A stretch of DNA of 37,112 bases from Chloroflexales bacterium (GCA_013336035.1 JAAXUL010000001.1:1-37112); one strand, 5' to 3'; positions 21,300-36,400 are shown, numbered from the stretch's first letter. Made by a program: numbers and translations. Notes: generated by a model from the sequence alone, not told the origin.

Positions 21300-21455
21300 A
21301 GAGGTGAACCGCTCTGTGTGCAAGGCGGGGAAGCTGAAAGAGGGCCTAGAATGCGGCAGGGAGCGTGGAGGAGCAAGTGCAGGCGGGAGGGGTGCTCCCA
21401 CTCGCTCGCTCGCCCACGCTCCCCGGCATTCACCGATACGATCGATCGCCTCGAG

Positions 21456-21887
21456 CTACGGGGTCTTGGGGGCCTTCTCGACCCACTCGTCCACTTTGGC
21501 GACGGTGCGCTCGACCCCATCGGCGGCGCGGCCAGCGGCCTGGCCGACAGTGGCGCCGAACTCATCGGCGGCGCGGGCCAGCCGCTCGGTGAAGGCGCGG
21601 GCGCGATTGCCGATCGTCTCGGCGCTGGGCAGGGCCGGGGCGGTGCCGCTGAAGATATCATCAACGACGCGCTCAGAGATATCGGCCAGCTCCTTGGGCA
21701 GGGCGATGAAGCCGCGGGCCAGCTCAGCGACACCCCGGCGCACGCGCACGCGCGTGTTGCGGGGCAGGATGCTCAGCGGGATCGAGATGATCGTCAGGCT
21801 AAGGCGGGCCACCCCGCCTACGAGCCTGGCGCCCAGCTCGAACAGGCCATCGGCATCGGCGCGGGTGGTGCTCGCATTCTCGCTCAT
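21456..21887 (-). CDS. csmN: Chlorosome envelope protein CsmN-like (CsmC/CsmD family)
   Basis: 143 aa, paralogous to the adjacent 104-aa ORF (ELGARLVGGVARLSLTIISIPLSILP vs ELGGGALRVGFSVLTLPLSLLP; ALPKELADISERVVDD vs SLPGEIVGVASKVVED). It sits directly after bchK-csmM, as I recall for Chloroflexus aurantiacus. AGGAGA precedes ATG 21887. Confidence 0.75.
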   Translation of the reverse strand: MSENASTTRADADGLFELGARLVGGVARLSLTIISIPLSILPRNTRVRVRRGVAELARGFIALPKELADISERVVDDIFSGTAPALPSAETIGNRARAFTERLARAADEFGATVGQAAGRAADGVERTVAKVDEWVEKAPKTP

Positions 21888-21955
21888 ACAGTGTTCTCCT
21901 GTTGGGGGCGTCCCTGTCTATGCCCCTAGGGGGCTACCGGCAGCGCGTAAAGCGC

Positions 21956-22267
21956 CTAGCCAGCGGCCAGCTCATCCTTCGGCGCCTTCTTCTCGGCCAC
22001 TCCGCTATCGGCGGCCCAATCCTCGACCACCTTGCTCGCGACCCCAACAATCTCGCCCGGCAGGCTAGCGAAAGCGTAGGCAAACTCCTTGGTCGCGTTC
22101 TGGATGTGCTGGCGGCTCACGGGGGGCAGCAGCGACAGGGGGAGCGTCAGGACCGAGAAGCCAACCCGCAGCGCGCCACCGCCCAGCTCGATCGCGGACT
22201 CTACCAAACTCTCACTGCGCTTTGTGCGGACGTTGCGCACCCGCACCTCACCTGTGGTTTCCGACAT
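21956..22267 (-). CDS. csmM: Chlorosome envelope protein CsmM-like (CsmC/CsmD family)
   Basis: The start ATG 22267 has a perfect AAGGAGG 6 nt upstream, giving 104 aa (about 11 kDa, the size class reported for CsmM). It is a paralog of the downstream ORF and lies immediately after bchK. Confidence 0.75.
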   Translation of the reverse strand: MSETTGEVRVRNVRTKRSESLVESAIELGGGALRVGFSVLTLPLSLLPPVSRQHIQNATKEFAYAFASLPGEIVGVASKVVEDWAADSGVAEKKAPKDELAAG

Positions 22268-22345
22268 GCTCGACCTCCTTATATGAAGTATGCAGGGTGG
22301 GAGCAGGAAGGGCAAAACTCTCCTGCCGATCCTCACCGAGGCACC

Positions 22346-23311
22346 TTACCCAAAGTAGCCGCCGACCATAAAGGCTGATGCGATCTGGATTAGCAGCGCG
22401 AACGGGTTGCTCGCGACCAGGTAGCGGATGTAGTTCTTCTGTGATGGCTCTTTATAGAGCTGGATCTGACTATAGATCGGCACGATGATAGACAGACCGA
22501 TGAGCCCCCCTACCCAGTAGTATCCCCAGACCAGGGCCAGCACCATCAGCAGCGCCTGTGAGATGTTGATCGTCAGATAGGCGATGATCAGGGCCTTGTG
22601 CATACCATGGGCGACGGCGATCGACATCAGGCCGTGCTGGCGGTCGCCCTCAACGCTCTTGATATCGTTGAGGAACAGCATCCCCGAGGCCAGGCCACCA
22701 TGAAGGATGGCGACCACCAGACTCTGCCAGGTCAGCGGGGCGAAGAGCACGTGACCGGCGACCCAGCTCATACTTACATAGCCCAGGCCCACAGCGGGTG
22801 GGCCAAGCCAGTAGTTCTTCTTGAGCTTGATCGGCGGCATGCTGTAGATCACCGACAGGATCAGCCCCAGCACCGAAAGCACAAGGATCAGCGGGTTGTT
22901 AAGCAGCAGCGCGACCGACAGGGTGGCCGCGCCGAGCACCAGCCAGTTGAGCCGCGCCTCATTCAGGGTGATCAGACCTGCCGGGATCGGTCGCTCAGGG
23001 TCGTTAATCGCGTCAAGGTCGCGGTCGAAGTAGTCGTTGATGCTCTGGCTGAAGCCGGTCCCCAGCGGGCCCGTCATCAGCGCGACCAGGAGGATGCGGC
23101 TCCAGTCCTCGGGGTTGTCCCACTGAAAGCCAGTGACACGTCCAGAGGCGAGCCCTCCACAGATAGTGATCAGCGCAGGCGAGATCCAGGTAACCGGATC
23201 GGCAAGCTCAATGTGCGCCCGGATCTTCCTGCCCAGGGGTACATGCTTCCGCGCGTTAGACACCACTCGGGCGTCTTTGGTTCTGGATACAGGCTGTTGT
23301 TTGCTTGCCAT
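22346..23311 (-). CDS. bchK: Bacteriochlorophyll c synthase (UbiA-family polyprenyl/phytyl transferase, ChlG/BchG/BchK clade)
   Basis: About nine TM segments and the ChlG/BchG-type motif SINDYFDRDLDAIND. The position between bchU and csmM/csmN favours BchK over BchG. Confidence 0.8.
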   Translation of the reverse strand: MASKQQPVSRTKDARVVSNARKHVPLGRKIRAHIELADPVTWISPALITICGGLASGRVTGFQWDNPEDWSRILLVALMTGPLGTGFSQSINDYFDRDLDAINDPERPIPAGLITLNEARLNWLVLGAATLSVALLLNNPLILVLSVLGLILSVIYSMPPIKLKKNYWLGPPAVGLGYVSMSWVAGHVLFAPLTWQSLVVAILHGGLASGMLFLNDIKSVEGDRQHGLMSIAVAHGMHKALIIAYLTINISQALLMVLALVWGYYWVGGLIGLSIIVPIYSQIQLYKEPSQKNYIRYLVASNPFALLIQIASAFMVGGYFG

Positions 23312-23376
23312 TCTACCACGGTACGCAAGGTCTGCGGCACTCAGCCACGCTCCCTGGGTCCCGCCTCCTCGCCCTC

Positions 23377-24444
23377 CTAGGCCTTGACCGCCTGGTAGAG
23401 TACATGGTCGTACTGCTCGTGGAATGTCACGTCGGTGAAGCCGACCTCACGTAGCACATCCGGGTAGATCCCGTGGTCCTTGAACTCGAGCACGCCGAAA
23501 TCGAGCCCGATCCCGCACACATAGTGGGTCAGGTAGTCGTAATTCGGCTTGTTCGGGTCGCTGATGTTCATGTCGACGATGATGATGCGCCCGCCGGGCT
23601 CGAGGGCGTTATAGGCCTGCCGCAGCAGGATCGAGCAGAACTGGCGGTTCATCGGGTAGAGGATGCGCGAGAAGAGCACCGCGTCGCCTTTGGGGTACGG
23701 CTCGCGATACATATCGACCACGACCGGCGTGATGCGCTCGCCCAGGCCCTTCGCCGCCATGTTCTCGCGCACCAGATCCTGGGCCGAGGGCAGGTTGAGC
23801 AGAGTGACCTTCAGCTCGGGGTAGCGCTCGCACAGCGAGGCCGAGATATCGCCGATGCCGCCGCCTACGTCGATCAGGTGCTTCACGCCCTCGAGGTTGG
23901 CGTTCTCGCCGAGGAACTTTGTCAGGAAGTAGATGTTGCTGCGGTGGATCGTCTCGTAGAAGATGCTGTCATCGCGCGTCTTCGGCGGGAACGGGATCAT
24001 GCTCGTGAAGTTGATCTTGCCGCGGGTCATTTCGGCGAGATCGACATACATCGTCTTGATCAGGTCGACCATATAGTCGACAAAGGGCAGCATGGTCAGG
24101 TTGCGGTGCTGCTCGGGCGCTGTGAAGAACTGGATGGAGAATGGTGTGAGCGCCCAGGCCTCCTCAGCGCGCTGGGCCAGGCCGATTTGCTGCATCGTGA
24201 TTAGCAGCTTCTCGAGCCGACCAGGTACGGTGGCGGTAGCCTCGGCCAGATCGGCGAGCATGCGTGGGCCGGCCGCCAGCTCGTCGAAGAGCTTTAGGTC
24301 ATACGCAGCTTTGATCACGAAGAAGTCCACCGTGCCCTTGAAGACCATGTCGTAGGCCTTCTCGGTCGCACGGAACAGCTCCTGGTCATCGCCGATGGAG
24401 TGGGCGTCCGGCAAGGAGCTAGGCTGTGCCTGCGTGGTGCTCAT
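23377..24444 (-). CDS. bchU: Bacteriochlorophyllide C-20 O-methyltransferase-family protein (BchU; CrtF-like class I SAM methyltransferase)
   Basis: N-terminal dimerisation/winged-helix-like region and the SAM motif LIDVGGGIGDIS, with the overall plant-type OMT/CrtF/BchU layout. Adjacent to bchK. Confidence 0.75.
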   Translation of the reverse strand: MSTTQAQPSSLPDAHSIGDDQELFRATEKAYDMVFKGTVDFFVIKAAYDLKLFDELAAGPRMLADLAEATATVPGRLEKLLITMQQIGLAQRAEEAWALTPFSIQFFTAPEQHRNLTMLPFVDYMVDLIKTMYVDLAEMTRGKINFTSMIPFPPKTRDDSIFYETIHRSNIYFLTKFLGENANLEGVKHLIDVGGGIGDISASLCERYPELKVTLLNLPSAQDLVRENMAAKGLGERITPVVVDMYREPYPKGDAVLFSRILYPMNRQFCSILLRQAYNALEPGGRIIIVDMNISDPNKPNYDYLTHYVCGIGLDFGVLEFKDHGIYPDVLREVGFTDVTFHEQYDHVLYQAVKA

Positions 24445-24500
24445 AGCCTTTGATCTTTCTCTGGTCAGCTTGGCCGTCCGGCCGGGTGATCTGCTCTTGT

Positions 24501-24528
24501 ATTATAGTACAAAAATCTGTTAGTTCAA
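24501..24528 (-). promoter_or_regulatory. Candidate promoter (TTGAAC-N16-TATAAT) for bchU-bchK-csmM-csmN
   Basis: The reverse complement reads ttgaac-taacagatttttgtac-tataat, in an AT-rich gap about 55 nt upstream of ATG 24444. Confidence 0.5.
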
Positions 24529-24567
24529 ACAACAGCGGCCTATCCCGCCGCCCCGCGCTCCGACTGC

Positions 24568-25317
24568 CTACAGCGGGTGGCTGGTCTCGGGCTGCACACG
24601 ACGCGCGACAGGCGTCTTGAGCACCTGTGCTTCGTCGAAGCCGAACCAGAGCGGGATGACCTTGCGGGCGCCGTACCAGACGAATGGGGCGTTGTATGGT
24701 GCGTGGCGGGCGCCCTCTAGCACCAGGTTGTCCGCGCCCTCCAGGTAGCAGGCTTTGGTCGGTACGATCCCATCACCATTCTCGTGCCCATTGCCATACC
24801 CGGTATCGTATGATTTAAAGGCAAACATCTGCTCGGGGTTGCCGAGGCGGCGCCCGGCGACGCCGTGGCCCGCCACCGAGCGATAGGCGATATGGCGATA
24901 GTAGGCGCCCGGGTAGCGCTGATTGACCACGCTCGCGAAGCCCTTGACCCAGATCTCGTAGGTGGTGTGGGCGGTGCCCAGGGTCGTCAGAGACGCGACC
25001 ACGCTCTGGCCGTCGTAGAGCACACCGTTATAGGGGATATGGCCAAGGAAGGCCCGGGCGACGCGCCCGCCGGCGCTGTGGCCAATCAGATGTACGCGGT
25101 CGGATTTCGTCTCTTCCAACGCCAGCTCAACCGTCTGGGCGAGCACATCGAGCACCGGGTTAAAGTCAGGGTCTCGCACTGAGGCCCACATGGCGCGCCC
25201 AATATCGGTGATATAGACGATATGGTTATACGGCGGCGACGCCAGGATGCGGGCCATGCGCACATAGTCACCCGGCGACGAAAGCCAACCGCCAATAATC
25301 ACGATTGGACGACTCAT
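24568..25317 (-). CDS. Alpha/beta-fold hydrolase (lipase/esterase-like)
   Basis: PIVIIGGW start, GHSAGG nucleophile elbow, and later D and H candidates (GDGIVP, ARHAPYN). GGGAGG precedes ATG 25317. Confidence 0.75.
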   Translation of the reverse strand: MSRPIVIIGGWLSSPGDYVRMARILASPPYNHIVYITDIGRAMWASVRDPDFNPVLDVLAQTVELALEETKSDRVHLIGHSAGGRVARAFLGHIPYNGVLYDGQSVVASLTTLGTAHTTYEIWVKGFASVVNQRYPGAYYRHIAYRSVAGHGVAGRRLGNPEQMFAFKSYDTGYGNGHENGDGIVPTKACYLEGADNLVLEGARHAPYNAPFVWYGARKVIPLWFGFDEAQVLKTPVARRVQPETSHPL

Positions 25318-25335
25318 CGCGGCCTCCCTGGCTTA

Positions 25336-25364
25336 AGCGCGGAGGGGATACACCCCTCCGCGCT
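25336..25364 (-). terminator. Intercistronic GC-rich hairpin (12-bp perfect stem), followed by a second small cccc/gggg hairpin
   Basis: agcgcggagggg-ataca-cccctccgcgct, between the stop at 25388 and the next start at 25317. Confidence 0.4.
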
Positions 25365-25387
25365 GCCCCGTAAGGGGTTCGAGCCGG

Positions 25388-26533
25388 CTATTTCCTGCCT
25401 TTGTCCCGCTTATCCTTCGACTGATCACTGGCGCCCGAGGGGCGGGCCGGCGGCGTCGGCGGTGTCGGGGTGGAGCTCTTGGCGCCGGCCGTCGGCGCAG
25501 GCGGCGTCGGGGTCGGCGTCGGGGCGCTGGCCGGCGGCGTCGGGGTTGGCGTACTCGCCGGCGCCGCGCTGCCCAGGGCGGCCACATCGGCCTTCAGCCC
25601 CTCGGCGGCCTTGCGCGAGGCCTCGGCGACATCCTTAGCGACAGGGGCCGTCTCCTTAGCCATGCGCGCCGCAAACTCGGGCGAGGTGTCCTTGCCCCCG
25701 GGCGGGACCGCGGCATCATCGGCGGTGACAGTCGGGCTGAAGACGGCGGTCGGCGCGGGCGGCGGAGGCGGCGTGGCGCGCTTCGTGCCGCCGTTGCCCT
25801 CGCCATTGCCGGCCTGGGACACCTTGATCCGTCGCGGCTGGGTTCCGGTGGTAACCTCTTCGCCAACAGGCGGCAGCCAGCCGGCCACGGCGTCGAGGGT
25901 CTCGCGGCCCATCTGGAAGAGGTCTTCCGTCTCGAAGCGGATCCAGTAGGTGTAGAAGTTCCAGACATCGGTCGCAGTCGCGCGAAGCTCGCGGCTGAAC
26001 TGCTCGATGCCCTGGGGCGGCAGGGCGCCGCGGGCAAACGAGCGCACCGCGTAGCCGACCGGCTGCACGAACCCATTTGCGGCCGCCTGGCTGATCGGGC
26101 CGGGGCCGTTCGCGCCGGGGCCGTTCGCGCCGGGGCCGTTCGAGGCTACCACGCGCGACGCGAGCGGGGGAGGCCCCGCCGGTCGCTGGCCGCTCTCATC
26201 GTGCGGCGAGGCTGCCGAAGATGGCGCGCTCGAGAACGAGCTGAAGCGCCTGACGCTCTCCTCGGCCGAATCGGTGCCGGGGTAGCTGGCCGCAAAGCGC
26301 GCGGTGCCGGTCTCAGCGGGCTGCGGGGCCCGGCCATAGGCCGACGGCGGCAGCGCCGGCGGGGTGTACGTGGACGACGAAGGCTTGGCGGGCGCGTAGC
26401 TGTACGACTGACGCGCGGGCTGCTCGTCCCTGTAGTCGCTGCTGCTGGGCTCGTAGTTGGGTAACTCGTCATCAAGGTTTAGGAACTTGCGCAGCCAGCC
26501 AGGCATCCAGCCGTACGAACTTGCACTGGACAT
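25388..26533 (-). CDS. Pro/Ala/Ser-rich low-complexity protein with one short ordered segment, unknown function
   Basis: Codon-consistent 381-aa ORF. Ordered island FSRELRATATDVWNFYTYWIRFETEDLFQMGRETLDAVAGWLP, a (GPGAN)3 repeat, PTPTPTPP tracts and a basic KDKRDKGRK tail. Confidence 0.6.
   Translation of the reverse strand: MSSASSYGWMPGWLRKFLNLDDELPNYEPSSSDYRDEQPARQSYSYAPAKPSSSTYTPPALPPSAYGRAPQPAETGTARFAASYPGTDSAEESVRRFSSFSSAPSSAASPHDESGQRPAGPPPLASRVVASNGPGANGPGANGPGPISQAAANGFVQPVGYAVRSFARGALPPQGIEQFSRELRATATDVWNFYTYWIRFETEDLFQMGRETLDAVAGWLPPVGEEVTTGTQPRRIKVSQAGNGEGNGGTKRATPPPPPAPTAVFSPTVTADDAAVPPGGKDTSPEFAARMAKETAPVAKDVAEASRKAAEGLKADVAALGSAAPASTPTPTPPASAPTPTPTPPAPTAGAKSSTPTPPTPPARPSGASDQSKDKRDKGRK
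26100..26144 (-). repeat. 3 x 15-bp tandem repeat (ccggggccgttcgcg) encoding (GPGAN)n
   Basis: Read directly: units at 26100-26114, 26115-26129 and 26130-26144 (the last has one substitution). Confidence 0.85.
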
Positions 26534-26590: not shown

Positions 26591-27475
26591 TTACCCCAAT
26601 GCGAGAAAGCGACGTTTCTGACGGGCGTGCGGCGCGAAGCAAAAGTCGATAATCTGGCCAAGATCATCATTCGGGTAGCGCCGGTCAAGGGCGACCACCG
26701 AGTCAAGCACATGGGCGATCTGGTCAGGCGAAATCTGCGGGTCGCAGCGGACTACATTCCCGATCAGCTGGCGGCGCAGCTCGAGGCTGTAGCGCAGACT
26801 GGTCACAGCGAGCTTACTCAGCAGGGCATCACGCAGGTCAAGGTTGTCGGTAAAGCGTTTGAGCCAGCGCTCGAGGCCGAGCCGCCCGCTCTTATCGAGG
26901 TAGAAGTTGACTAGGTCGGCCAGGGCCGCGTCATTGGTCAGATCCATCAGCTCATTCCAGCGCTTGCCAAAGGGCTGATTGCCGAAGGTGGGCAGCTCGG
27001 AAAGCTGAGAGATCAGATGGCTGGCGGTATGGTAGGGCTCGCGCTCGAAGGTGCGCACCAGGCCCGCCTCGCGCTCGGCGAGCAGCGAGACAGCCTCGCG
27101 CAGCACCCCGTCGGAGTGGTCATAGCCGCCGCGGCGCAGATGCATCTCGTGGGCCAGCTCGTGGAGCGCGATGCCGACGGTGCTATCCTCATCCCAGCGG
27201 CCGAGGCTCACGAATGAGCCGCTGCGCGGCGAGAAGCTGCCGCTGTCGGACCACGGCCCGCTGGAACGCCCGCCGTCGAGCGCCTCGAAGGTGAGACGCT
27301 CGCCCAGGATCTCGGGCCCTATCTCGCTGCCCCACATCTGGGAGGCATAGCGGCGCACTTTGCGGGCCATCTGTGCCGGCTTATAGCGGTGCTCGCCGAC
27401 CACGAGTACCTGATCGCCGGCGTTCTCCATAATGATCGCCGCTTGCTGGCCGTTTGCGCGTAGGAGCAGCTGCAT
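26591..27475 (-). CDS. Hypothetical protein with an HExxH zinc-metallopeptidase-like motif
   Basis: ALHELAHEMH (the HELAH codons lie at 27149-27163), with downstream E/D candidates (REAVSLLAEREAG). No signal peptide or TM segment is evident. Confidence 0.55.
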   Translation of the reverse strand: MQLLLRANGQQAAIIMENAGDQVLVVGEHRYKPAQMARKVRRYASQMWGSEIGPEILGERLTFEALDGGRSSGPWSDSGSFSPRSGSFVSLGRWDEDSTVGIALHELAHEMHLRRGGYDHSDGVLREAVSLLAEREAGLVRTFEREPYHTASHLISQLSELPTFGNQPFGKRWNELMDLTNDAALADLVNFYLDKSGRLGLERWLKRFTDNLDLRDALLSKLAVTSLRYSLELRRQLIGNVVRCDPQISPDQIAHVLDSVVALDRRYPNDDLGQIIDFCFAPHARQKRRFLALG

Positions 27476-27571: not shown

Positions 27572-28576
27572 CTAGCGAACACCGCGAAGGAAGAGACGCA
27601 AGATCTGCACCACCTGATCGGGCAGCTCGAAGAGGATGAGATGTCCGCAGCGCGGCACCTCGAGGTACTGCCCGTGGGGGGCGAGCTGCATCAGCTTTCG
27701 CCCGTCCTGGGGTCGCATAATCGGGTCGCCCGCCCCTGCCACCAGCAGAGTGGGCTGCTGCACGCGCCGCATCTGCTCGGGCAGATCATCGAGCACGTCG
27801 CGCCGGGCCAGCTCCTCGGCCGAGACGCGGATGGCCTGGGGGTCGCAGCAGCGCAGGCTCAGGGTCGCCAGCTTGATGTCGCTGACCGTGGCGGGGTTCT
27901 TCGACAGCACCAGCCGGGCGTAGACATACGGGATCCACCAGAGGCCCCGCTTCTCGATTGGCCGGAGCATCTTATTAAAGACGAAGTCCAGCGTGGCCGG
28001 CGTCATCGCCGCGGCTACCCGGTTGTAGGTGAGCAGGCTGAAGTTGAAGAAGACCAGCGAGCGCACCCGCTCGGGGTTGTGCGCCGCGTAGTGCAGCGCG
28101 ACGAAGGCGCCCAGCGAGAAGGCCGCCACATGGTGCGCCGATAGCTGCAAGACATTGCCCAGCTCCCTCAGGTCGTCGCTGAAGTCGGCTATCCGGTAGC
28201 CCTGGTCCGGGTCGCTGTTCGAGAAGCCGTGGCCCCGCAGATCGTACAGGATCACGCGGTAGCCCGCGGCGACCATCGGATCGATGATATAGTGCCACCA
28301 GTACGATGAGCAGTCCCAGCCGTGCACAAGCACAAGGGGCTCGCCGTCGCGCGGCCCGTAGTCCATATAGTGGTGGACGACCCCATTCAGCTTGACGAAG
28401 CGGGCCTGCTCAAGCAAACCCTGCTCGTCAGTGAGCCGCTTGCGCTCGGCGGCGCTGAGCTGTCCGGCGAGCTGCGCCTCAACCTCGGCGCGGTAGGTCT
28501 GATACTTCTCGGATGTAGCCTGAGCGCCGAGGGTTGGGCGTTCAGCCTCAGCTGTGTTCGACACTGAACTGATCAT
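27572..28576 (-). CDS. Alpha/beta-fold hydrolase
   Basis: LVLVHGWDCSS oxyanion region, nucleophile-elbow-like AFSLGA, and a C-terminal CGHLILFE His region. ATG 28576 has GGAGG 6 nt upstream (the track start is GTG 28591). Confidence 0.8.
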   Translation of the reverse strand: MISSVSNTAEAERPTLGAQATSEKYQTYRAEVEAQLAGQLSAAERKRLTDEQGLLEQARFVKLNGVVHHYMDYGPRDGEPLVLVHGWDCSSYWWHYIIDPMVAAGYRVILYDLRGHGFSNSDPDQGYRIADFSDDLRELGNVLQLSAHHVAAFSLGAFVALHYAAHNPERVRSLVFFNFSLLTYNRVAAAMTPATLDFVFNKMLRPIEKRGLWWIPYVYARLVLSKNPATVSDIKLATLSLRCCDPQAIRVSAEELARRDVLDDLPEQMRRVQQPTLLVAGAGDPIMRPQDGRKLMQLAPHGQYLEVPRCGHLILFELPDQVVQILRLFLRGVR

Positions 28577-28642
28577 TGCTGGCCTCCACACCGCACCCAG
28601 AGTCTGGCCCGTGTCCTGTTCGCCATGGTATGAACTCGACTG

Positions 28643-29752
28643 CTACTCAACCCAGAGCCGAAGCACCTCGTCGGGATCAACCTTGGCCCGCAGGCGCCCC
28701 CCGGTGGTGATGCCGGGGAGAAGCACATGGCGGCGTAGCGCGCCGAGGCGCACGAGCACCTCTTCATTCGCCAGGGCGATATCGAGCTCTTTCGGATCGA
28801 GGAAGGGAATATAGAGCTTGACCTCGCGCTCGTGGGCGGAGGTGCGGGCCGATTTGGCTGCGTCGAAGACTTCGCCGTCGAGATAGAGGGACGCGCCGCG
28901 CAGGGCCCAGGTATCACGGATGGCGGGGGTCTGGGTCAGCTTGCTGACCCGCAGGCCTGGACGGGCCTTGCTTGTCTGGTACGAGAACTCTAGCCGGTGC
29001 GCGTCATCGACCTCGGCGGGCTCGCCGGAGACGATTATCTCGTCGCAGGCCATGCTATAGAGGCCAAGGGCGGTCAGGGTAGAGCGCGGCGCGGGCATGT
29101 GCAGCTCTTCGGGGGTGACGACGAGTCGCACGCGGGTGCCGGTGTCGGCGTTGATGCTGCTGCGCTGCACCTCGAGGTAGACGCGCAGATCCTGGAGCGG
29201 GGCCTGGGCCGACGATGTGATGAGCGCCGCGGGGAAGATCGCGGCCTCTTGCGAGCTGCGCGACTGGCCGGGCCCGCGGTCGAGCCCAAAGATCTGGCGG
29301 GTCAGCCAGCGCAGCGCATCGGGCAGCGAGAGCGCCCGGGTCAGGCTATCGGGCATTGGACCATCGACGACCATCAGGTCGAAGCGGTTCATCCGACGGG
29401 CCTTATCGGCCACAAGGATGGCGCCGATCGCATCGATCCCAGGGAAGGTGGGCAGCTCTTCGGGGCCGATCTCGCGCAGGCGCGAGGTCATAGCGCCGCG
29501 CAGATTTCCGCGCGTGACGTCCCAGAGCGCGCCGAGCTCCTCGAGGGGGCTCACCTCCATGGCCGCCAGGTTGGGCTCGAGCTCGAGGGGACGCGAGCTC
29601 AGGCTCTGGCCAAGCATTGCACCCGTCAGGTGGGCCGGTCCGGCAGAGGCGAGCAGCACACGCTTACCGCGCCGTGCGGCGTGGCAGGCTGTCGCCACGG
29701 CCGCCGAACTCTGGAGGATCTGGTTGTAACCCGAGAAGATCAGGATTTGCAT
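28643..29752 (-). CDS. ArsA/Get3-family protein with degenerate nucleotide-binding motifs and an HSP20-like C-terminal domain (probable pseudo-ATPase)
   Basis: Collinear with the two neighbouring ArsA-like proteins. However, the P-loop is SGYNQILQS instead of GKGGxGKT, and switch II is DGPMPDSLTRAL instead of D(T/C)APTGxTLRLL. The C-terminus VKLYIPFLDPKELDIALANEEVLVRLGALRRHVLLP matches the paralogs' HSP20-like tail. Confidence 0.7.
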   Translation of the reverse strand: MQILIFSGYNQILQSSAAVATACHAARRGKRVLLASAGPAHLTGAMLGQSLSSRPLELEPNLAAMEVSPLEELGALWDVTRGNLRGAMTSRLREIGPEELPTFPGIDAIGAILVADKARRMNRFDLMVVDGPMPDSLTRALSLPDALRWLTRQIFGLDRGPGQSRSSQEAAIFPAALITSSAQAPLQDLRVYLEVQRSSINADTGTRVRLVVTPEELHMPAPRSTLTALGLYSMACDEIIVSGEPAEVDDAHRLEFSYQTSKARPGLRVSKLTQTPAIRDTWALRGASLYLDGEVFDAAKSARTSAHEREVKLYIPFLDPKELDIALANEEVLVRLGALRRHVLLPGITTGGRLRAKVDPDEVLRLWVE

Positions 29753-29812
29753 TGTCAGTCCGTACGCCGTAGTCCGTTGAGCCTGATAGGGTGCGGACTA
29801 TGGAATTACGCC

Positions 29813-31045
29813 TCAGGCGGCCTCAACCCGCAACTCGTCCGGCTCATCGGCGGGCGCCGCGCCCGAGCCCTCGCGGAACTCTAGGCGCAGCACGCCGTCT
29901 TCATAGCGGTGGTTGCCCATCACACAGTCGTAGAGGATGCGCGGCAGGGCGATCGTGCGCTGGATACGACCCAGGGAGATCCCCAGATCTGGCCCGCTGC
30001 GCGACAGGTTGACTGTCTCGTCCTCTTCCATAAAGGGCAGCTTCATACACAGCTCGTACTGGCCGGGCTCGCCCTCTTCATTCCACTGCTCGAGCCAGAT
30101 CGGGCGCTCGTCGAAGAGCAGCGCGCCGGCGTCGGCCTCGCCGAAGGTCGCCCGCCCGATCGCCTCGAGGGCCGGGATGCCGATCGGCTCGCCCTCCTGA
30201 AGGACGGTGCGGAAGATCGGGGTCGGCGAGAAGCTGTCGTCGATCTCTTGCAGGTAGCCGCGCTGGAGGCTGACCCAGTAGTCGAAGTAGGGCCCCAGGT
30301 CAGAGCGGCGCGGCAGGATCTTATTGACCATCACCGCGTCGACCATCATCCCATAGAGGTTAAGGAAGGTGTAGGCGCGGCGCGTCTCGAGGAGCGGTAG
30401 CTTCTCGGGGTTAAGGACCAGGCGCAGCGAGATCTTGGGGCTGAGCAAGAAGTTTGCCAGCTGGTCCATGCGCTCGAGCAGGGTGCCGACCTCATCGAAG
30501 AAGCGGTCGTCGGGCAGATCGCGCTTGAAGGGCCGTGCAAAGTTCGCCAGGCCGCGGTAGACGCGGAAGAACTTCTTGCCCGCGTCGCCGCCGATGATCA
30601 TCTCGGGGTAGGCCAGCAGCCGCAGGGTGTTGCCGGTCGGCGCCGTATCGAGCACGATCGTATCCCAGCGACCGCTCTGGGCCTCGTCCATCACCCGCTG
30701 GAGCGCCAGGATCTCATCGAGCCCGGGCTGGTTCGCCAGTTCGGCCGCGGTCGAGCGGTCGACCCCGCGGTTAGAGTAGGTCGAGGCGACAAACTGCTGG
30801 AAGCCGCCAAGATTATGGCGCCACTCGTGGATCGTATCAACCTCGAGGCCATACAGTCCGGGCACGATGGCGGTGGGCCGGTCACGGCTAATCGGCATGC
30901 CGATCGCATCGGCCAGCGAGTGAGCCGGGTCGCTGGAGAGCACCAGGGTACGTTGACCAGAGCGGGCCAGCAGGGTCGCTGTCGCCGCCGAGATAGTGGT
31001 CTTGCCGGTGCCGCCTTTGCCCGAATAGATAATGACACGCGTCAT
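29813..31045 (-). CDS. ArsA/Get3-family ATPase with an HSP20-like C-terminal domain
   Basis: P-loop GKGGTGKTT, SSDPAHSLAD, and switch II DTAPTGNTLRLL. C-terminal YELCMKLPFMEEDETVNLSRSGPDLGISLGRIQRTIALP. Confidence 0.85.
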   Translation of the reverse strand: MTRVIIYSGKGGTGKTTISAATATLLARSGQRTLVLSSDPAHSLADAIGMPISRDRPTAIVPGLYGLEVDTIHEWRHNLGGFQQFVASTYSNRGVDRSTAAELANQPGLDEILALQRVMDEAQSGRWDTIVLDTAPTGNTLRLLAYPEMIIGGDAGKKFFRVYRGLANFARPFKRDLPDDRFFDEVGTLLERMDQLANFLLSPKISLRLVLNPEKLPLLETRRAYTFLNLYGMMVDAVMVNKILPRRSDLGPYFDYWVSLQRGYLQEIDDSFSPTPIFRTVLQEGEPIGIPALEAIGRATFGEADAGALLFDERPIWLEQWNEEGEPGQYELCMKLPFMEEDETVNLSRSGPDLGISLGRIQRTIALPRILYDCVMGNHRYEDGVLRLEFREGSGAAPADEPDELRVEAA

Positions 31046-31091
31046 GTCGATGTACGATCGGGATGTGCGATTGAGCGCTGCCCGTCCGGCT

Positions 31092-31129
31092 CGGTGTACC
31101 CATGGGCCAGCTGGCCCATGAGTACACCG
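31092..31129 (-). promoter_or_regulatory. Intercistronic 17-bp-stem hairpin (16/17 paired) with a 4-nt loop
   Basis: cggtgtacccatgggcc-agct-ggcccatgagtacaccg, between the stop at 31170 and the start at 31045. Confidence 0.45.
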
Positions 31130-31169
31130 CCTCTGGTCACGAAATCAATCCCACAGCGTAGATCAGGCC

Positions 31170-32639
31170 TTATTCGTCATCTGGTCGGTGGACGCCATTG
31201 CCATTGTCGCTCACGACCTTCGCGCTGCCGTTGAGCGAGGGCTCGCCGACAGGGCTGGAAGTACGCCCGACAGCGATCCGGCGCACGGGGGCGCTGCGCT
31301 GCGACTGATCCTGGGGCTGCTCGGGGGCCACGGGCTCCTCCGAGACTGGGGGCTCGACCTTGCGCACGCTGATGCTTCGCTTGAGCGGGTCGGGGCGGAT
31401 GGAGGCGGCGGTACCCGTCGAGTCGGGCAGCGAGGTCGCCTGGCGCGGCAGGCTGCCTCGCTGGGCCCCCTCGTCGATCTCTGTCTCGACGGGCGTCGTT
31501 GGCCGGCGCCCGCGGACGCTCACGCTTGAGCGGACCTGCACGCGACGAGACTGCTGCTGGGTCTGCTCGGACTCCAGGGGCTCGGCGAAGCGCACCGCTG
31601 CCCGCACCACGGGACCGACAGATGCCAGGGGGCCGCCGTCGGCCTCGTGCTGGGCGGCGGTCTGGTAGAGGCCGCGCATCGCATTGCGGCGCACCCGCGG
31701 ATCCTGCAGGCCGCTGACCAGCTCGCCGGCGCCGCCCATCGCCTCGCTGGCGCGGCGGACACTGCGGGCGAGGCGGCGGGGCGCCTCGAAGAAGATGCGC
31801 AGCGTGCGGCTGACCTCGTACAGGCTAGGCTGGTCGGGCATCATCGGCATCGCGCCCATTGGCCCGGTCTGCATGTCGAGCGCGTTGCCGCTGAGCGAGG
31901 TGCCCTGGCGCTGGCTCTCGTAGGCGGCGATCAGGTTGTCCGAGCTGCTTGGGGGCGTCAGCGCCTGCTGCTCCTCGCCGGCGCGACCGACCTGCCACCA
32001 GCGCTTGCGCTCGCTCTTCTTGGCGCTAGCTGGGGCTGCCAGCTCGGCGGGGGGTGGGAGGGCGGCCTCGGGTGTGATGAAGAGAGACTGGAGGGCCACG
32101 CGCTCGCTGGGGGGGAACTCGGCGAAGAAGTTGGCGATCAGCTCCTCGTTGCTGACTGCGTTGACGATCTGGTCGCCCACTAGCTCGACCATGCGGGCGA
32201 AGGTGGCGACATCGTCGGCGGGCATATAGTCGAGGGTGTTCATCACCAGCCGCTCGCCGCTGCCGGGCTCCTCGACTGTACCATTGACAGCGATCCGCCG
32301 CTTGCGCGGGGCGATCGAAGGCAGGCGAAAGGCCAGCTGCACCCGCCCGTGCCAGGGATCCCAGGTCTCAGCCTGCACGACATCGACATCCTTCCAGGGG
32401 AAGCTGTCGACCGTATCATTGAAGAGGCCGCGGGCCCAGGTGACCACCCGCTTGTCGGTGAGGGCCACAAAGTCAGAGAGCGCGAGGCCGCCGACGCGGC
32501 GGCGGGTCTGATCAAGCAGGACGCCATCGAAGAGCGCGAGCAGCGTCTCGCCCTCCTCAAGCAGCCCGCGGTGGCGCATCTCCTCGACGATGGCCGCATT
32601 GACGTTCACGCCGAGAAACGGGCGAGTGCTCATAGTCAT
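31170..32639 (-). CDS. Hypothetical protein: N-terminal PH-like (bacterial PH/GRAM-type) domain plus a long Pro/Arg/Ser-rich disordered C-terminal region
   Basis: The N-terminal ~110 aa (LLEEGETLLALFDGVLLDQTRRRVGGLALSDFVALTDKRVVTWARG...VDSFPWKDVDVVQ...HGRVQLAF) parallel the upstream paralog. The remainder is low complexity. Confidence 0.6.
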   Translation of the reverse strand: MTMSTRPFLGVNVNAAIVEEMRHRGLLEEGETLLALFDGVLLDQTRRRVGGLALSDFVALTDKRVVTWARGLFNDTVDSFPWKDVDVVQAETWDPWHGRVQLAFRLPSIAPRKRRIAVNGTVEEPGSGERLVMNTLDYMPADDVATFARMVELVGDQIVNAVSNEELIANFFAEFPPSERVALQSLFITPEAALPPPAELAAPASAKKSERKRWWQVGRAGEEQQALTPPSSSDNLIAAYESQRQGTSLSGNALDMQTGPMGAMPMMPDQPSLYEVSRTLRIFFEAPRRLARSVRRASEAMGGAGELVSGLQDPRVRRNAMRGLYQTAAQHEADGGPLASVGPVVRAAVRFAEPLESEQTQQQSRRVQVRSSVSVRGRRPTTPVETEIDEGAQRGSLPRQATSLPDSTGTAASIRPDPLKRSISVRKVEPPVSEEPVAPEQPQDQSQRSAPVRRIAVGRTSSPVGEPSLNGSAKVVSDNGNGVHRPDDE

Positions 32640-32702
32640 TCCCTGTCTAGTGCCTGTTTCGCAGCCACCGGCGGGGGCAAGGCGCCGAGACGCGCACGTC
32701 TC

Positions 32703-33923
32703 TTACTGGTGGCGGTCGTCGAGCATCGGCGAGCGGTCGTCCGGTCCGGCGTCACCCGAGCCGCTAACAGCGGGCAGATGTCCGTGGGTGACCGGCATGG
32801 GGGCGACAGCAGCCTGGCCGCGGCGCAGCGGGATCTCACGACGGTCGGGGACGGGCGGGTCGGCCCGGCGCTCCGCAGAGCTGCGCTGCGCTGTCTCGAC
32901 AGGTTTTTCGGCTGTGGGCTCGCGGAAGACCTGCGGCTGAGGCGTAGTGGGGCGGCGGCGCAGGGGGATCTCGTGATAGACTGCGGGCGCGGGTGTGCCG
33001 CCGGCTGCCGACGCCTCGGCGGGCGCCTGGGCCGGGGCGGCTGTCCGCTGTGATGCGCCGCCACGCTGGGATGCATCGGTGGGCGCGGGCGCTGCGCCCT
33101 GGTTGTTGTTGTTGCGGTTGTTGATGAAGGCCATCGCCATCTGCTGGGCGCTGGGGTTACTAGCGACCGTAACGACCAGCTCGTTGATGGCGCGCACGGC
33201 CTCGGTCAGCTCGCGCAGGCTGCCGCTATTGATCTCGATCGGCAGGTCGGCCTCGCGGATCGAGCGGCGCAGGGTGTCCCAGGCCGAGCGGGCGAGGCGG
33301 CCGGCGGTGTAGAACTGCCCGGGCGGAAGGTTGGCCGGGTCGTGGACGAACGCGGGGCCAGGGCTGACTTGCTGGCTGGCGGCGGCGCCGGGCCAGCGAT
33401 AGGGCGTCTCACCGGGGCGCAGGCCATCGACATGGCCATAGATCTGCTCGCCGAGGATCGCCATGATCTCGGCGCCGGCCTCGCGAGAGTCAACGCCCTG
33501 GTCGGCGAGGTCACGGGCGGCCTCGCTGGCGGTACGCAGCAGAGTTAGAGCAGCCTGAAGGTTTGCCAGGGGAAGGAGGGCCAGACTGAAGTTCTGGTCA
33601 TCCTCGTCGGGGGCGGCGAAGCAGAGCTGGATCTGGGCATGGATGGGGTCGATCCCAGTGCCTTCGACCGTCGTCAGCTCCGCCAGGGGGAATGCGTAGC
33701 ACAGGTGACGACCATAGTCGCGCGCCCAGAGGATCACGCGCAGGTTCGTCACCAGGCAGTAGTCGTGGAGAGTCGGGCCGCTCAGGCGATGCCCACTGCC
33801 GTCGAGTAACACACCGTCGAGCGCTACCAAGATCTCCTCGTCGGGCTCGATAAGGCCTAGGGCCTCGAGCTCGGTGAGATGGTTCGGGACGACGGTGTGG
33901 CTGTGATAGAGCAGACTAATCAT
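32703..33923 (-). CDS. Hypothetical protein, paralog of 31170-32639 (PH-like N-domain plus disordered tail)
   Basis: LIEPDEEILVALDGVLLDGSGHRLSGPTLHDYCLVTNLRVILWARDYG...AFPLAELTTVEG...HAQIQLCF, with an NNRNNNNQ and Pro/Ala-rich tail. First gene downstream of csmA. Confidence 0.6.
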   Translation of the reverse strand: MISLLYHSHTVVPNHLTELEALGLIEPDEEILVALDGVLLDGSGHRLSGPTLHDYCLVTNLRVILWARDYGRHLCYAFPLAELTTVEGTGIDPIHAQIQLCFAAPDEDDQNFSLALLPLANLQAALTLLRTASEAARDLADQGVDSREAGAEIMAILGEQIYGHVDGLRPGETPYRWPGAAASQQVSPGPAFVHDPANLPPGQFYTAGRLARSAWDTLRRSIREADLPIEINSGSLRELTEAVRAINELVVTVASNPSAQQMAMAFINNRNNNNQGAAPAPTDASQRGGASQRTAAPAQAPAEASAAGGTPAPAVYHEIPLRRRPTTPQPQVFREPTAEKPVETAQRSSAERRADPPVPDRREIPLRRGQAAVAPMPVTHGHLPAVSGSGDAGPDDRSPMLDDRHQ

Positions 33924-33941
33924 GGTCGAGGATAGAGGAAA

Positions 33942-33985
33942 CTGGATACAGGATACAGAGCTTGGAGGCTGTATCCTGTATCCAG
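33942..33985 (-). terminator. Perfect 17-bp stem / 10-nt loop hairpin immediately downstream of csmA (terminator/attenuator or mRNA-stabilising 3' structure)
   Basis: ctggatacaggatacag-agcttggagg-ctgtatcctgtatccag read directly. It begins 15 nt after the csmA stop and ends 18 nt before the next ATG. Only a short T run (ttt) follows on the minus strand. Confidence 0.6.
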
Positions 33986-33999
33986 TCCCCTGCTCGCTA

Positions 34000-34242
34000 C
34001 TACCGGTTGAATCGCGACCGGATGCGCTTCGGGCGGAAGCTCACATCCGCGGTGGTGAACCCACCCTCGCCGCTGCCGCTGCGGGCGATGCCCGGGTAGG
34101 CGTTGCGGTTGATGTTCTCGACCGCGGCCGACGTGGCCTGCAGCGCATTCGACACCCACTGCCAGTGGCCCTGGAACATGATGTCGCCAATCTGCGCCAC
34201 CGTACCAGCCGACTCCGAGAACCAGCCTCGTGTAACGGCCAT
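34000..34242 (-). CDS. csmA: Chlorosome baseplate BChl a-binding protein CsmA (80-aa precursor)
   Basis: MAVTRGWFSESAGTVAQIGDIMFQGHWQWVSNALQATSAAVENINRNAYPG... with the C-terminal FRPKRIRSRFNR. This is near-identical to the Chloroflexus aurantiacus CsmA precursor as I remember it, including the BChl-ligand His in GHWQW. AAGGAGG lies 7 nt upstream of the ATG. Confidence 0.95.
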   Translation of the reverse strand: MAVTRGWFSESAGTVAQIGDIMFQGHWQWVSNALQATSAAVENINRNAYPGIARSGSGEGGFTTADVSFRPKRIRSRFNR

Positions 34243-34359
34243 CCGTACACCTCCTTGACCTTAGACGAACACCCTAATACAGGCTTACGGGGCATGGCCC
34301 CGGTAGACCCCGGTGGAATGATCCCAAGAGCAGTGGGGGCCGCCCTTGAGCTGAGCGGA

Positions 34360-35559
34360 CTAGGGGCGAACCCCGTTCGCCGCGTAGAATGGTACGATTA
34401 GCCAGTCGCCCTCCATCTCGGCCTGGCCGGCTTCCTGGCCAGCGAGACTTGTGGGCAGGGTCATGATGCGGCGGAAGTCGCCGATCTGGATCACCAACTC
34501 ATCGCCATTCTGGAATAGGTCGAGCTGACTGACATCGGCGAAGGGTAGCTTCAGCTTGACCCGATATGTCCCGTCGGCCAGCTTGGCGATGTCCATCGGG
34601 GACTGCTTGTAGACGATCGCCGTGGGGTCGCTATCGCCATAGATGTCGCGGCCCATCGCGCGCAGCTTCTCGAGGCCAACGACCTCTTCGGCGTAGTAGG
34701 GCACGTGACGGATGGGCAGTGGCGTAAACGAGTGCTCTACATCCAGAAGGTAGCGCTGCTGCACGTCCTTCCAGTGGTTCAGATAGCCGCTGTCCTGGTC
34801 CACCGGTAGGATCTTGTTGACCACCACCGTGTCGACGGTCATCCCATACATCGAGAGATAGGTGAGGGCGCGCTGGCTCTCCTTAATCACCATCTTCTCG
34901 GGGTTCATCACCAGACGGACCGAGGTCTCGAGCGGGTTAGCCAGGGTCTCGGTGACGCCGACCATCTGGGCGAACATGTCGTCGACGGCCTCGTAGACTT
35001 CGGTGGGGGCGATCATCTTGCCGAGCGTCGGGTTGAGCTTGCTCATCGGCCGCAGCAGCGGCTTGATGACAAATTTCTCGGCCCCGCGCAGCATCCCCAT
35101 CGCCCACTTGAAGGTCTCGGGCGCCGAGAGCAGGCGCAGCGTCTCGCCGGTGGGGGCGCAGTCGACCACGAGCAGATCGTAGTCGCCCTGATCTTTGTGC
35201 TTCTTGATCCTGAGGAGCGGTAGGGCCTCCTCCATGCCGGGGAGGACACTCATCTCGTCGGCGAGAATGCCCTCTACCCCCTGCTCGGCCATCAGCTGCG
35301 AGAAGTGCTCGCGCACAACCCCCCAGTTGTTCTCGATGTCATGGTAGATGCTGACTTCGAGGGCGTCGAGGGTGGGCGTGATGCGCACAGGCTCAGGGCC
35401 GAGCGGGCCCTCGAGGTCGAGCGAGTCGGCGAGGCTATGGGCCGGGTCAGTGCTCATTACTAGCGTGCGTAGGCCCATGTCGGCCGCACGCAGGGCCGTG
35501 GCTGCGGCCACGCTCGTCTTGCCGACGCCGCCTTTGCCCGTAAAGATGAGGGTTCGCAT
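34360..35559 (-). CDS. ArsA/Get3-family ATPase with an HSP20-like C-terminal domain
   Basis: P-loop GKGGVGKTS, STDPAHSLADSL, and switch II DCAPTGETLRLL. C-terminal YRVKLKLPFADVSQLDLFQNGDELVIQIGDFRRIMTLP. Confidence 0.88.
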   Translation of the reverse strand: MRTLIFTGKGGVGKTSVAAATALRAADMGLRTLVMSTDPAHSLADSLDLEGPLGPEPVRITPTLDALEVSIYHDIENNWGVVREHFSQLMAEQGVEGILADEMSVLPGMEEALPLLRIKKHKDQGDYDLLVVDCAPTGETLRLLSAPETFKWAMGMLRGAEKFVIKPLLRPMSKLNPTLGKMIAPTEVYEAVDDMFAQMVGVTETLANPLETSVRLVMNPEKMVIKESQRALTYLSMYGMTVDTVVVNKILPVDQDSGYLNHWKDVQQRYLLDVEHSFTPLPIRHVPYYAEEVVGLEKLRAMGRDIYGDSDPTAIVYKQSPMDIAKLADGTYRVKLKLPFADVSQLDLFQNGDELVIQIGDFRRIMTLPTSLAGQEAGQAEMEGDWLIVPFYAANGVRP

Positions 35560-35709: not shown

Positions 35710-35738
35710 ATACTACCACGAATATCGGGGGGTGTCAA
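35710..35738 (-). promoter_or_regulatory. Strong candidate promoter (TTGACA-N17-TAGTAT) for the ArsA-like gene and possibly csmA and downstream genes
   Basis: The reverse complement reads ttgaca-ccccccgatattcgtgg-tagtat, about 145 nt upstream of ATG 35559, in the divergent intergenic region shared with the haemoglobin gene. Confidence 0.5.
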
Positions 35739-36007
35739 CAAAAGTGACCTATATGAACGAAGGGCTGCTATCAGTTGTCGCGCCGCTACAATAGGCAAAA
35801 AAGGGCAACCAATGCGGAATGACGCGATGCGTTATAGGTCCATTTGTCCATATTTTGCGCAGTGATTTGCCGGACTTTGCCCGGGTCAGGCGAGGGATTG
35901 CACCAGCTTGGCACAGGCGCCCGTAGACCACATCTTGTATGATTTGCAACAAAGCGTGTAAATTTTTCCCACAATCATGCGTCTCGGGCCCATGGTACAC
36001 TAAATCT

Positions 36008-36400
36008 ATGAGCGAGCAGCCAACAATCTTCGAGCAGGCTGGCGGCGCCCCTGCCTTTCGGCGCCTGGTCAACGCTTTCTACGCCCGGGTCGAGCACGAT
36101 CCTCTGCTGCGCCCGATGTTTCCGCCCGACCTTGAGCCCGGCAAAGAGCACCAGTACCTCTTCCTTATCCAATACTTCGGCGGCCCGCCTGCCTATGGCG
36201 AGCAGCGCGGCCACCCGCGCCTGCGTGTGCGCCACGCCCCCTTCCCGATCGGCCCCTCAGAGCGCGACGCCTGGCTTGCCCATATGCTCGCCGCCCTCGA
36301 TGAGGCCGCCATCCCCGAGCCTGCCCGCTCGGCGATGCGCGCCTATTTCGAGCTGGCCGCGCCCGCGATGATGAACCAGCAGTCGCCAAACACGCTCTAG
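36008..36400 (+). CDS. glbO: Group II truncated haemoglobin (trHbO/GlbO-like)
   Basis: TIFEQAGGAPAFRRLVNAFYARVEHDPLLRPMFP...QYLFLIQYFGGPPAYGEQRGHPRLRVRHAPFPIGPSERDAWLAHM. The GHPRLRMRHAPF-type block is characteristic of group II trHb. Start ATG 36008 (the track start 35939 is an over-extension). Confidence 0.85.
   Translation: MSEQPTIFEQAGGAPAFRRLVNAFYARVEHDPLLRPMFPPDLEPGKEHQYLFLIQYFGGPPAYGEQRGHPRLRVRHAPFPIGPSERDAWLAHMLAALDEAAIPEPARSAMRAYFELAAPAMMNQQSPNTL

Follow-up and report, generated by a model that had tools for sequence, protein, structure and literature searches.

Get3d-type ATPases and PH-like proteins encoded around csmA: a candidate chlorosome assembly module in two phyla of green bacteria

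We describe a gene block built around csmA, which encodes the bacteriochlorophyll (BChl) a-binding baseplate protein of the chlorosome, in a stretch of 37,112 nucleotides from a Chloroflexales bacterium (GCA_013336035.1 JAAXUL010000001.1:1-37112), referred to here in its full length as the window. Besides csmA the block encodes three ATPases of the Get3d type (ArsA1, ArsA2 and ArsA3) and two proteins that combine a PH-like domain with a disordered tail (PH1 and PH2). On balance we favor the reading that these five proteins form a dedicated, ATP-driven system for assembling the chlorosome baseplate or envelope, and a role in chlorosome or CsmA biogenesis has strong associative support from the conservation of the block within the Chloroflexales and from a related block in the green sulfur bacteria. 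A preliminary description of the window, made from its sequence, had placed six genes in the order ArsA1-csmA-PH1-PH2-ArsA2-ArsA3 on the minus strand, and all six open reading frames (ORFs) were found exactly where it put them, separated in gene order from ArsA1 to ArsA3 by gaps of 117, 76, 63, 124 and 60 nucleotides:

34360..35559, minus strand: ArsA1, Get3d-type ATPase with intact catalytic motifs (Pfam, NCBIfam, ortholog alignment)
34000..34242, minus strand: csmA, precursor of the chlorosome baseplate BChl a-binding protein, 80 residues (Pfam PF02043, 87.7 bits against a cut-off of 25, E 5e-25)
32703..33923, minus strand: PH1, PH-like domain at residues 12-165 (nucleotides 33429-33890), conserved helices, disordered tail (AlphaFold, Foldseek)
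31170..32639, minus strand: PH2, PH1 paralog with the same layout (BLASTP against PH1)
29813..31045, minus strand: ArsA2, Get3d-type ATPase with intact catalytic motifs (Pfam, NCBIfam, ortholog alignment)
28643..29752, minus strand: ArsA3, Get3d-type predicted pseudo-ATPase that keeps its alpha-crystallin domain (Pfam, ortholog alignment)

The first line of evidence is the conservation of gene order. We scanned a CsmA alignment against one genome per GTDB species and assigned the neighboring ORFs by BLASTP to the proteins of the window, which recovered 58 csmA loci, all of them from Chloroflexales (Chloroflexus, Oscillochloris, Ca. Chloroploca, Ca. Viridilinea and many metagenome-assembled genomes, MAGs). 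The linkage of the five genes to csmA in chlorosome-bearing Chloroflexales, which the preliminary description had suggested examining, was borne out in all 58 loci wherever the contig allows. The variants consist of an extra ArsA-like gene (~25% identity to ArsA1) between PH2 and ArsA2 in two loci from Chloroflexaceae MAGs (L055, L056) and of one locus without an ArsA3 match (L048). Loci that are sufficiently long continue from ArsA3 into ABH1, unk294, unk381 and ABH2 and then into bchU-like and bchK-like genes; the conserved block runs on through these additional genes, downstream of the six originally delimited. In the genome paper of Cfx. aurantiacus the genes from csmA (Caur_0126) to bchU/bchK are drawn as uncharacterized (PMC3150298), and another publication (PMC9316378) describes the photosynthesis genes of this organism as otherwise scattered.

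A second line of evidence comes from outside the phylum. We used the CsmA sequence of C. tepidum, confirmed against PDB 2k37, to retrieve green sulfur CsmA, and an analogous linkage, which the preliminary description had suggested looking for in the Chlorobi, was present, in the order Get3d-csmC-csmA-PH-like-Get3d, in two genomes and on ~50 metagenome contigs. The two genomes, of Chlorobium phaeovibrioides and Prosthecochloris, encode in succession a protein with ArsA_ATPase and ArsA_HSP20 domains (399/405 residues), csmC, csmA, an unannotated protein (446/570 residues) and a second protein with ArsA_ATPase and ArsA_HSP20 domains (384 residues); the remaining neighbors are unrelated housekeeping genes. 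The unannotated protein matches PH1 (E 8e-10, with a second conserved helix at 7e-5) and PH2 (40% identity, E 1e-14). For the metagenomes we scanned with an alignment of the PH domains of PH2 and the green sulfur proteins, an alignment that also included PH1 being too divergent, and obtained 79 loci, 27 with the Chloroflexales order and the remainder with the green sulfur order. The gene directly upstream of the PH-like gene is csmA in ~63 of these 79 loci; the others are truncated by a contig end before reaching it, and in none of the 79 does another gene occupy the place of csmA. A hot-spring lineage, represented by seven loci, has the green sulfur order, with ATPases ~65% identical and PH-like proteins ~40% identical to the green sulfur references, and is probably a deep Chlorobi-related phototroph.

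Published classifications can be read in the same light. Cluster 11 of Castillo and Saier 2010 (PMC2963123) has four members, from Chloroherpeton, C. tepidum, Cfx. aurantiacus and Ca. Chloracidobacterium thermophilum, all of them organisms with chlorosomes, from three phyla. In gi number the Cfx. aurantiacus member follows the csmA-upstream homolog by four, which would make it the ArsA2 ortholog. Context analysis gave those authors no functional clue for these clusters, and the single Roseiflexus homolog is listed beside Herpetosiphon homologs and a third Chloroflexus paralog (PMC2963123). Our hit lists and this published table give indirect support to the view that the specialized paralogs are absent from chlorosome-less relatives.

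The ATPases were described at the outset as ArsA/Get3-type proteins that all end in an HSP20-like tail, and the Pfam searches agree: ArsA_ATPase (PF02374) matches ArsA1, ArsA2 and ArsA3 at 3e-91, 6e-68 and 1.5e-21, and ArsA_HSP20 (PF17886) at 1e-22, 1.5e-16 and 8e-7, always above the 22.5-bit cut-off. All three are single-domain ATPases of 369-410 residues. ArsA1 and ArsA2 pass the cut-off of 135 bits for the NCBIfam TRC40/GET3/ArsA subfamily TIGR00345 with 250 and 210 bits, and ArsA3, with 66 bits, fails it. None of them reaches the 325 bits required by the NosAFP equivalog model NF050088 (144, 78 and 85 bits for ArsA1, ArsA2 and ArsA3), and by these scores they are relatives of the Nostoc protein and not its equivalogs. 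The closest solved relative of ArsA3 is Nostoc All4481/NosGet3d (3igf, 6.5e-18), the closest solved matches of ArsA1 and ArsA2 are archaeal Get3 structures (3zq6, 3ug6), of proteins that bind tail-anchored clients, and NosGet3d aligns to full-length ArsA1. No CxxC (C..C pattern) occurs in ArsA1, ArsA2, ArsA3 or the two green sulfur ATPases, and ArsA1 carries a single Cys. An insert of 62-69 residues, 39-46% hydrophobic, follows switch II in all three; in ArsA1 it is 69 residues long and Met-rich (six Met), and in ArsA3 it has no Met. Judged by their sequences, the three ATPases belong to the Get3d group, Get3 with an alpha-crystallin domain, and not to the arsenite pump. The interpretation that accompanied the preliminary description stands in part: two of the comparative checks it proposed, run at least in part, support its link to csmA, and it had not recognized the Get3d group.

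The catalytic motifs divide the three paralogs. GKGGxGKT, DPAHS and DxAPTGxTLRLL are invariant in 57 ArsA1 and 50 ArsA2 sequences (window plus orthologs), and the VNKILP loop is nearly invariant in both ortholog sets. ArsA3 had been labeled degenerate, correctly so: its GKGGxGKT has become GYNQILQS, and the two lysines of the P-loop have disappeared, together with switch II and the A-loop, in 48 of 48 sequences (the window and 47 orthologs). Because this loss is uniform and the alpha-crystallin domain is kept, the alignment points to a conserved pseudo-ATPase rather than a decaying gene. A neighbor-joining tree places the ArsA1 clade with the upstream ATPase of green sulfur bacteria (49% identity) and one unplaced metagenomic protein, and puts ArsA3 on a long branch of its own. 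We rejected the grouping of ArsA2 with P0216 in this tree as an artefact, because P0216 is crenarchaeal (it has a Cren7 neighbor).

According to Barlow et al. 2023 (PMC10248533), Get3d is conserved in cyanobacteria, chloroplasts and both green nonsulfur and green sulfur bacteria, the last of which have several copies. The authors reported ATP hydrolysis and binding of tail-anchored (TA) proteins in vitro, left the function unassigned and nowhere mention chlorosomes; the members they describe vary at the active site, with intact and degenerate forms, and a closed hydrophobic chamber is described in the structures. The proteins studied here share with Get3d the ATPase with a C-terminal alpha-crystallin domain, the missing CxxC, a predicted helical insert and the coexistence of intact and degenerate forms. 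They differ in occurring as three paralogs linked to csmA and PH-like partners, and ArsA3 lacks the Walker A lysines altogether.

PH1 and PH2 are paralogs, 36% identical over the N-terminal 90 residues (BLASTP, E 1e-17). The AlphaFold model of PH1, built with 31 orthologs, is confident for residues 12-165 (pLDDT ~90), where it shows seven strands and a long helix; beyond residue 165 the confidence is low and the chain is predicted to be disordered. The best Foldseek matches of the model are the bacterial PH domains 3dcx and 3hsa (E 1.6e-4, target-normalised TM-score 0.66), accompanied among the leading matches by further PH domains. On the strength of the model and these matches, the earlier description of PH1 and its paralog PH2 as PH-like plus disordered holds. 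The Pfam bPH families detect the relationship poorly: PH2 scores 18.5 bits on bPH_3 (cut-off 23), and neither PH1 nor the green sulfur homolog gives a match. The proteins share with bacterial PH domains (bPH, DUF1696; 3dcx, 3hsa) the seven-strand sandwich and the C-terminal helix cap, and differ from them by added conserved helices, by a long motif-bearing disordered tail and by their restriction to csmA loci. A homolog search with PH1 gave 141 matches, every named one from Chloroflexales, and in the searches made the family was found solely at csmA loci.

Little of the sequence of the PH-like tails is conserved apart from short repeated motifs. PH1 carries the repeats YHEIPLRRR and DRREIPLRRR, PH2 carries RRxIxVRR and VRRIAVGR, and the green sulfur tails carry one to five copies of RKK(I/V)x(I/V). 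In the window the motifs are located as follows:

32952-32978 and 32820-32837, minus strand: two invariant EIPLRR motifs in the PH1 tail (ortholog alignment)
31365-31373 and 31269-31277, minus strand: RSISVRK and RRIAVGR in the PH2 tail (kept across orthologs)

We counted a basic I/V-x-I/V/L motif 101 times in PH1 tails, 125 times in PH2 tails and 153 times in green sulfur tails, against 1.7, 5.8 and 13.7 times in the residue-shuffled tails, an overall enrichment of ~10- to 60-fold; these counts come from related sequences and hence are not independent events, and the surrounding tail has diverged freely. The PH-like proteins are a new PH-domain family with a repeated short linear motif. The flexible tails of small heat-shock proteins carry IxI/V motifs, which bind in the beta4/beta8 groove of alpha-crystallin domains. 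Because such motifs dock alpha-crystallin domains and each of the ATPases has one, we infer that the PH-like tails may tether the ATPases through these domains. Common to both cases are short I/V-x-I/V/L motifs in disordered tails and alpha-crystallin domains, here encoded in the same gene block; the present case differs in having motif and domain on separate proteins and motifs that are basic and repeated one to five times, and the binding is predicted.

A homolog search with CsmA gave 49 clusters, a profile search matched the C. tepidum CsmA structure 2k37, and the GHW...INRNAY core forms invariant columns in the homolog alignment. The mature 51-residue Chloroflexus CsmA (P0048) stops near precursor residue 52 and lacks the C-terminal extension, which in the precursor (34000-34040 in the window, minus strand) is strongly conserved. 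It ends in SRF(N/S/T)R in Chloroflexales, SRFNR here, and in SKFA(K/E) in green sulfur pre-CsmA (P0354-P0378), so that both phyla have the common pattern S-(K/R)-F-x-(K/R). Such conservation fits the idea, voiced in the preliminary description, that the extension could be a recognition element. The gene is flanked by signals of its own, listed here with the promoter candidate of the block:

35710..35738, minus strand: sigma-70-like promoter candidate upstream of ArsA1, TTGACA-17-TAGTAT with extended TG (consensus scan, 10/12)
34276..34313, minus strand: conserved element upstream of csmA, CCGGGGTCTACCGGGG-N4-GCCCCG followed by the -10-like box TGTATT
34250-34256, minus strand: csmA ribosome-binding site AAGGAGG, containing a perfect AGGAGG
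33936..33990, minus strand: stem-loop directly 3' of csmA, ~22 bp, no clear T-tract

The promoter candidate proposed earlier at 35738-35710 is a good consensus match, as a pattern match only. The element upstream of csmA (GGGGTCnACCGGGG ... CCCCG and the -10-like box) is conserved across Chloroflexales in the 15 upstream regions that we aligned and may be a regulator-binding site. The 77-nucleotide spacer 3' of csmA folds at -41 kcal/mol; in 18 other loci the same spacer folds at -31 to -60 kcal/mol with unrelated sequences and usually no T-tract, and a hairpin after the csmA stop codon is kept in every lineage examined (L003-L058). It is probably a candidate attenuator or mRNA-stabilizing element. 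Since csmA has its own upstream element, -10-like box, AGGAGG and stable 3' hairpin, it is probably expressed separately and at a high level from within the block, and the genes downstream of it may depend on read-through or on other promoters. The earlier reading of the block as a single operon is too simple in view of the promoter-like element and hairpin of csmA.

The assembly system that we favor would work as follows. ArsA1 and ArsA2 would be active ATPases that catch newly made small amphipathic or hydrophobic chlorosome proteins post-translationally and hold them in the helical insert that corresponds to the client groove of Get3. The prime client would be the 80-residue pre-CsmA, and CsmM/N, or CsmC in green sulfur bacteria, are further possible clients. 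ArsA3 would be a catalytically dead partner, probably pairing with ArsA2 in the manner of the unequal halves of ArsA. The PH-like proteins would serve as adaptors or scaffolds whose PH domain binds the target surface or the client and whose tails would dock the alpha-crystallin domains of the ATPases through the basic I/V-x-I/V/L motifs. We offer a more specific version of this scheme tentatively: Get3d dimers, including an active/dead heterodimer, might deliver pre-CsmA and small envelope proteins to the nascent chlorosome while the multivalent PH-like tails tether them, and the S-(K/R)-F-x-(K/R) tag might act as a recognition or release signal that is later removed, possibly by an HExxH protein encoded in the block. 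If true, the Get3d family, which reaches into chloroplasts, would have a client and a function assigned to it for the first time.

Two known systems help to judge this proposal. With GET/TRC40 it shares the ATPase fold and the logic of capturing short hydrophobic proteins post-translationally; it differs in its proposed destination, a lipid-monolayer organelle, in the amphipathic nature of CsmA and in the lack of a CxxC zinc dimerization motif in the ATPases, and no Get1/2 or Get4/5 homologs were seen among the genes annotated in the window. The gas-vesicle (gvp) clusters analyzed by Castillo and Saier 2010 (PMC2963123) likewise place an ArsA-family ATPase and an alpha-crystallin protein beside the genes of a prokaryotic organelle, one built from a small hydrophobic structural protein. 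There, however, the ATPase has two domains (~640 residues) and Hsp20 is a separate gene, whereas in the chlorosome block the two are fused and a PH-like partner is present.

Several points weigh against an assembly role. The support is associative, coming from sequence and synteny. We know of no report of these proteins in purified chlorosomes, which fits an assembly factor and is no evidence for one. The chlorosome genes of both phyla may share an origin in horizontal transfer, and part of the common order may therefore be inherited and not independently selected. Green sulfur bacteria have no ArsA3-type pseudo-ATPase and one PH-like gene only, so the composition of the module is not fixed, and the recovered loci leave out Chloracidobacterium and Chloroheliales, with Roseiflexus likewise outside. 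CsmA is weakly hydrophobic (Kyte-Doolittle maximum 0.6 in a 15-residue window), here an amphipathic and not a classic tail-anchored protein, which makes the analogy to Get3 clients loose. The tree of the ATPases is a simple neighbor-joining one containing one clearly artefactual grouping, and, given the promoter-like element and hairpin of csmA, co-transcription of the block is uncertain.

Among other explanations, the one that survives best starts from the genes that follow ArsA3 in the Chloroflexales:

27572..28591, minus strand: ABH1, alpha/beta hydrolase, always after ArsA3 in Chloroflexales (Pfam; weak BchO-like NCBIfam match)
26591..27475, minus strand: unk294, candidate zinc metallopeptidase (IALHExAHExH and REA..AEREAG near-invariant, 51 orthologs aligned)
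25388-26533, minus strand: unk381 (synteny)
24568-25317, minus strand: ABH2 (Pfam, synteny)
23377-24444, minus strand: O-methyltransferase, bchU-like (Pfam, synteny; named after the Cfx. aurantiacus cluster, PMC3150298)
22346-23311, minus strand: UbiA prenyltransferase, bchK-like (Pfam, synteny; named after the Cfx. aurantiacus cluster, PMC3150298)

The part from unk381 to the bchK-like gene spans 22346..26533 (minus strand). All Chloroflexales loci have unk294 in their csmA block, and one locus (L046) has two copies, one of them with the catalytic Glu replaced. Its motif and conserved glutamates form a zincin-like signature, and on account of this HExxH metallopeptidase signature it could be a candidate for the protease that processes pre-CsmA. 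Profile searches of PDB and Pfam with unk294 gave nothing significant, and its single-sequence model has too little confidence to be of use (pLDDT 42). Farther along this strand, at 17011-21401, lie two B12-binding radical-SAM genes and a pyridine-nucleotide-disulphide oxidoreductase; the radical-SAM genes may encode BChl c side-chain methyltransferases. Beside them the ORFs at 21456-22270, which have no Pfam match, are probable csmM/csmN genes. On the other side of the block a truncated bacterial-like globin gene (35939-36400, plus strand) diverges from ArsA1 and is kept there in most Chloroflexales csmA loci; its position hints at an oxygen-related function or regulation.

The direct continuation of the Chloroflexales block into alpha/beta hydrolases and the bchU-like and bchK-like BChl c genes suggests that the module could handle pigments or lipids instead of proteins, the Get3d chamber carrying BChl a to CsmA, or BChl c, carotenoids, quinones or glycolipids into the chlorosome, with the PH-like protein marking the membrane site. 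Eukaryotic PH domains often bind lipids, and the weak hydrophobicity of CsmA itself would also agree. The closed hydrophobic chamber described for Get3d would suit such cargo, yet the activity published for Get3d is TA-protein binding (PMC10248533). The green sulfur block, moreover, has no pigment genes and consists of csm genes, a PH-like gene and two ATPases only, and we identified no lipid- or pigment-binding motif in this analysis. We consider this explanation unlikely.

The linkage could also be without specific function, general ArsA+HSP20 proteostasis chaperones having been carried along with csmA in horizontal transfer. Proteins of this architecture are indeed common, occur in many non-phototrophs and are solitary there (PMC6593721), and our ArsA1 search returned 8746 representative clusters at E<=1e-3. 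Five close ArsA1 relatives that we checked (~38-55% identity), one of them from the Bacteroidota, are solitary with unrelated neighbors, none of the five being linked to csmA, and chlorosome genes are thought to have moved between phyla (PMC3150298). Against this, the order is kept in all ~137 loci from two phyla despite the insertion of csmC, the duplication of PH, the gain of ArsA3 and different flanks; the PH-like family was found nowhere else in the searches made; and purifying selection clearly acts on both the pseudo-ATPase and the tail motifs. Mere hitch-hiking is in our judgment distinctly improbable. A solitary ArsA+HSP20 homolog from the Bacteroidota (L059/L060, 10001-11191), 45% identical to ArsA1, has as neighbors HMG-CoA reductase, patatin, phasin, PHB-accumulation genes and PspA/IM30, a context which hints at a possible role of further family members in lipid or granule-type inclusions.

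Very improbable, in our view, is a positioning system of the ParA/MinD type, in which the ATPases would space or segregate chlorosomes and the disordered PH-like proteins would be cargo adaptors comparable to McdB for carboxysomes. Get3/ArsA and ParA/MinD do share the deviant Walker A fold class, weak matches to ParA, MinD and CbiA are obtained, and the partners are adaptor-like in combining a folded domain with a multivalent basic disordered tail. The matches to Get3 and Get3d are nevertheless far better, the Get3-type helical insert and the alpha-crystallin domain are features of chaperones, and a dead paralog together with three different ATPases is atypical of positioning systems. Each of these three explanations, pigment or lipid handling, hitch-hiking and positioning, fits fewer observations than an assembly module. 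An arsenite-pump subunit for metalloid resistance is virtually excluded and was rejected, since for it speak only the shared Pfam ATPase family with its name and the database label 'arsenite-transporting ATPase', whereas the proteins are single-domain (~400 residues, against a tandem A1-A2 of ~580), score 100, 81 and 24 bits (ArsA1, ArsA2, ArsA3) against the TIGR04291 cut-off of 650, have no metalloid-binding cysteine set (one Cys in ArsA1) and have no ars genes beside them at the green sulfur loci. The earlier statement that ars partners are missing from the window is upheld for ArsB/Acr3, which none of the tested window ORFs of at least 180 residues matched, arsR, arsC and arsD not having been searched exhaustively.

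The finding is not one of a new kind of protein, since the ATPase family was already known as Get3d. What appears to be undescribed in the searchable literature is the fixed association of Get3d with csmA, the PH-like family with its repeated motif and the conserved pseudo-ATPase; we found no paper there that links these genes to chlorosomes, although an earlier remark in subscription sources is possible, and two papers that analyzed these proteins missed the chlorosome connection (PMC10248533, PMC2963123). In the literature consulted, chlorosome formation is discussed solely in terms of 'budding' and 'aggregation' models with no assembly factor named, and CsmA is described as the only chlorosome protein whose sequence is similar in all three chlorosome phyla (PMC9316378). 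As a small cross-phylum gene set beside csmA, the module would provide the first concrete candidates for a chlorosome-building machinery. It would also provide the first concrete client and partner hypothesis for Get3d, a family conserved in green bacteria, in cyanobacteria and in the chloroplasts of plants (PMC10248533, PMC6593721). Chlorobaculum tepidum lends itself to genetic manipulation (PMC3150298 cites a bchK knockout), and the gene set is open to direct knockout there, so that the questions of chlorosome biogenesis and of Get3d function become direct knockout and binding experiments.

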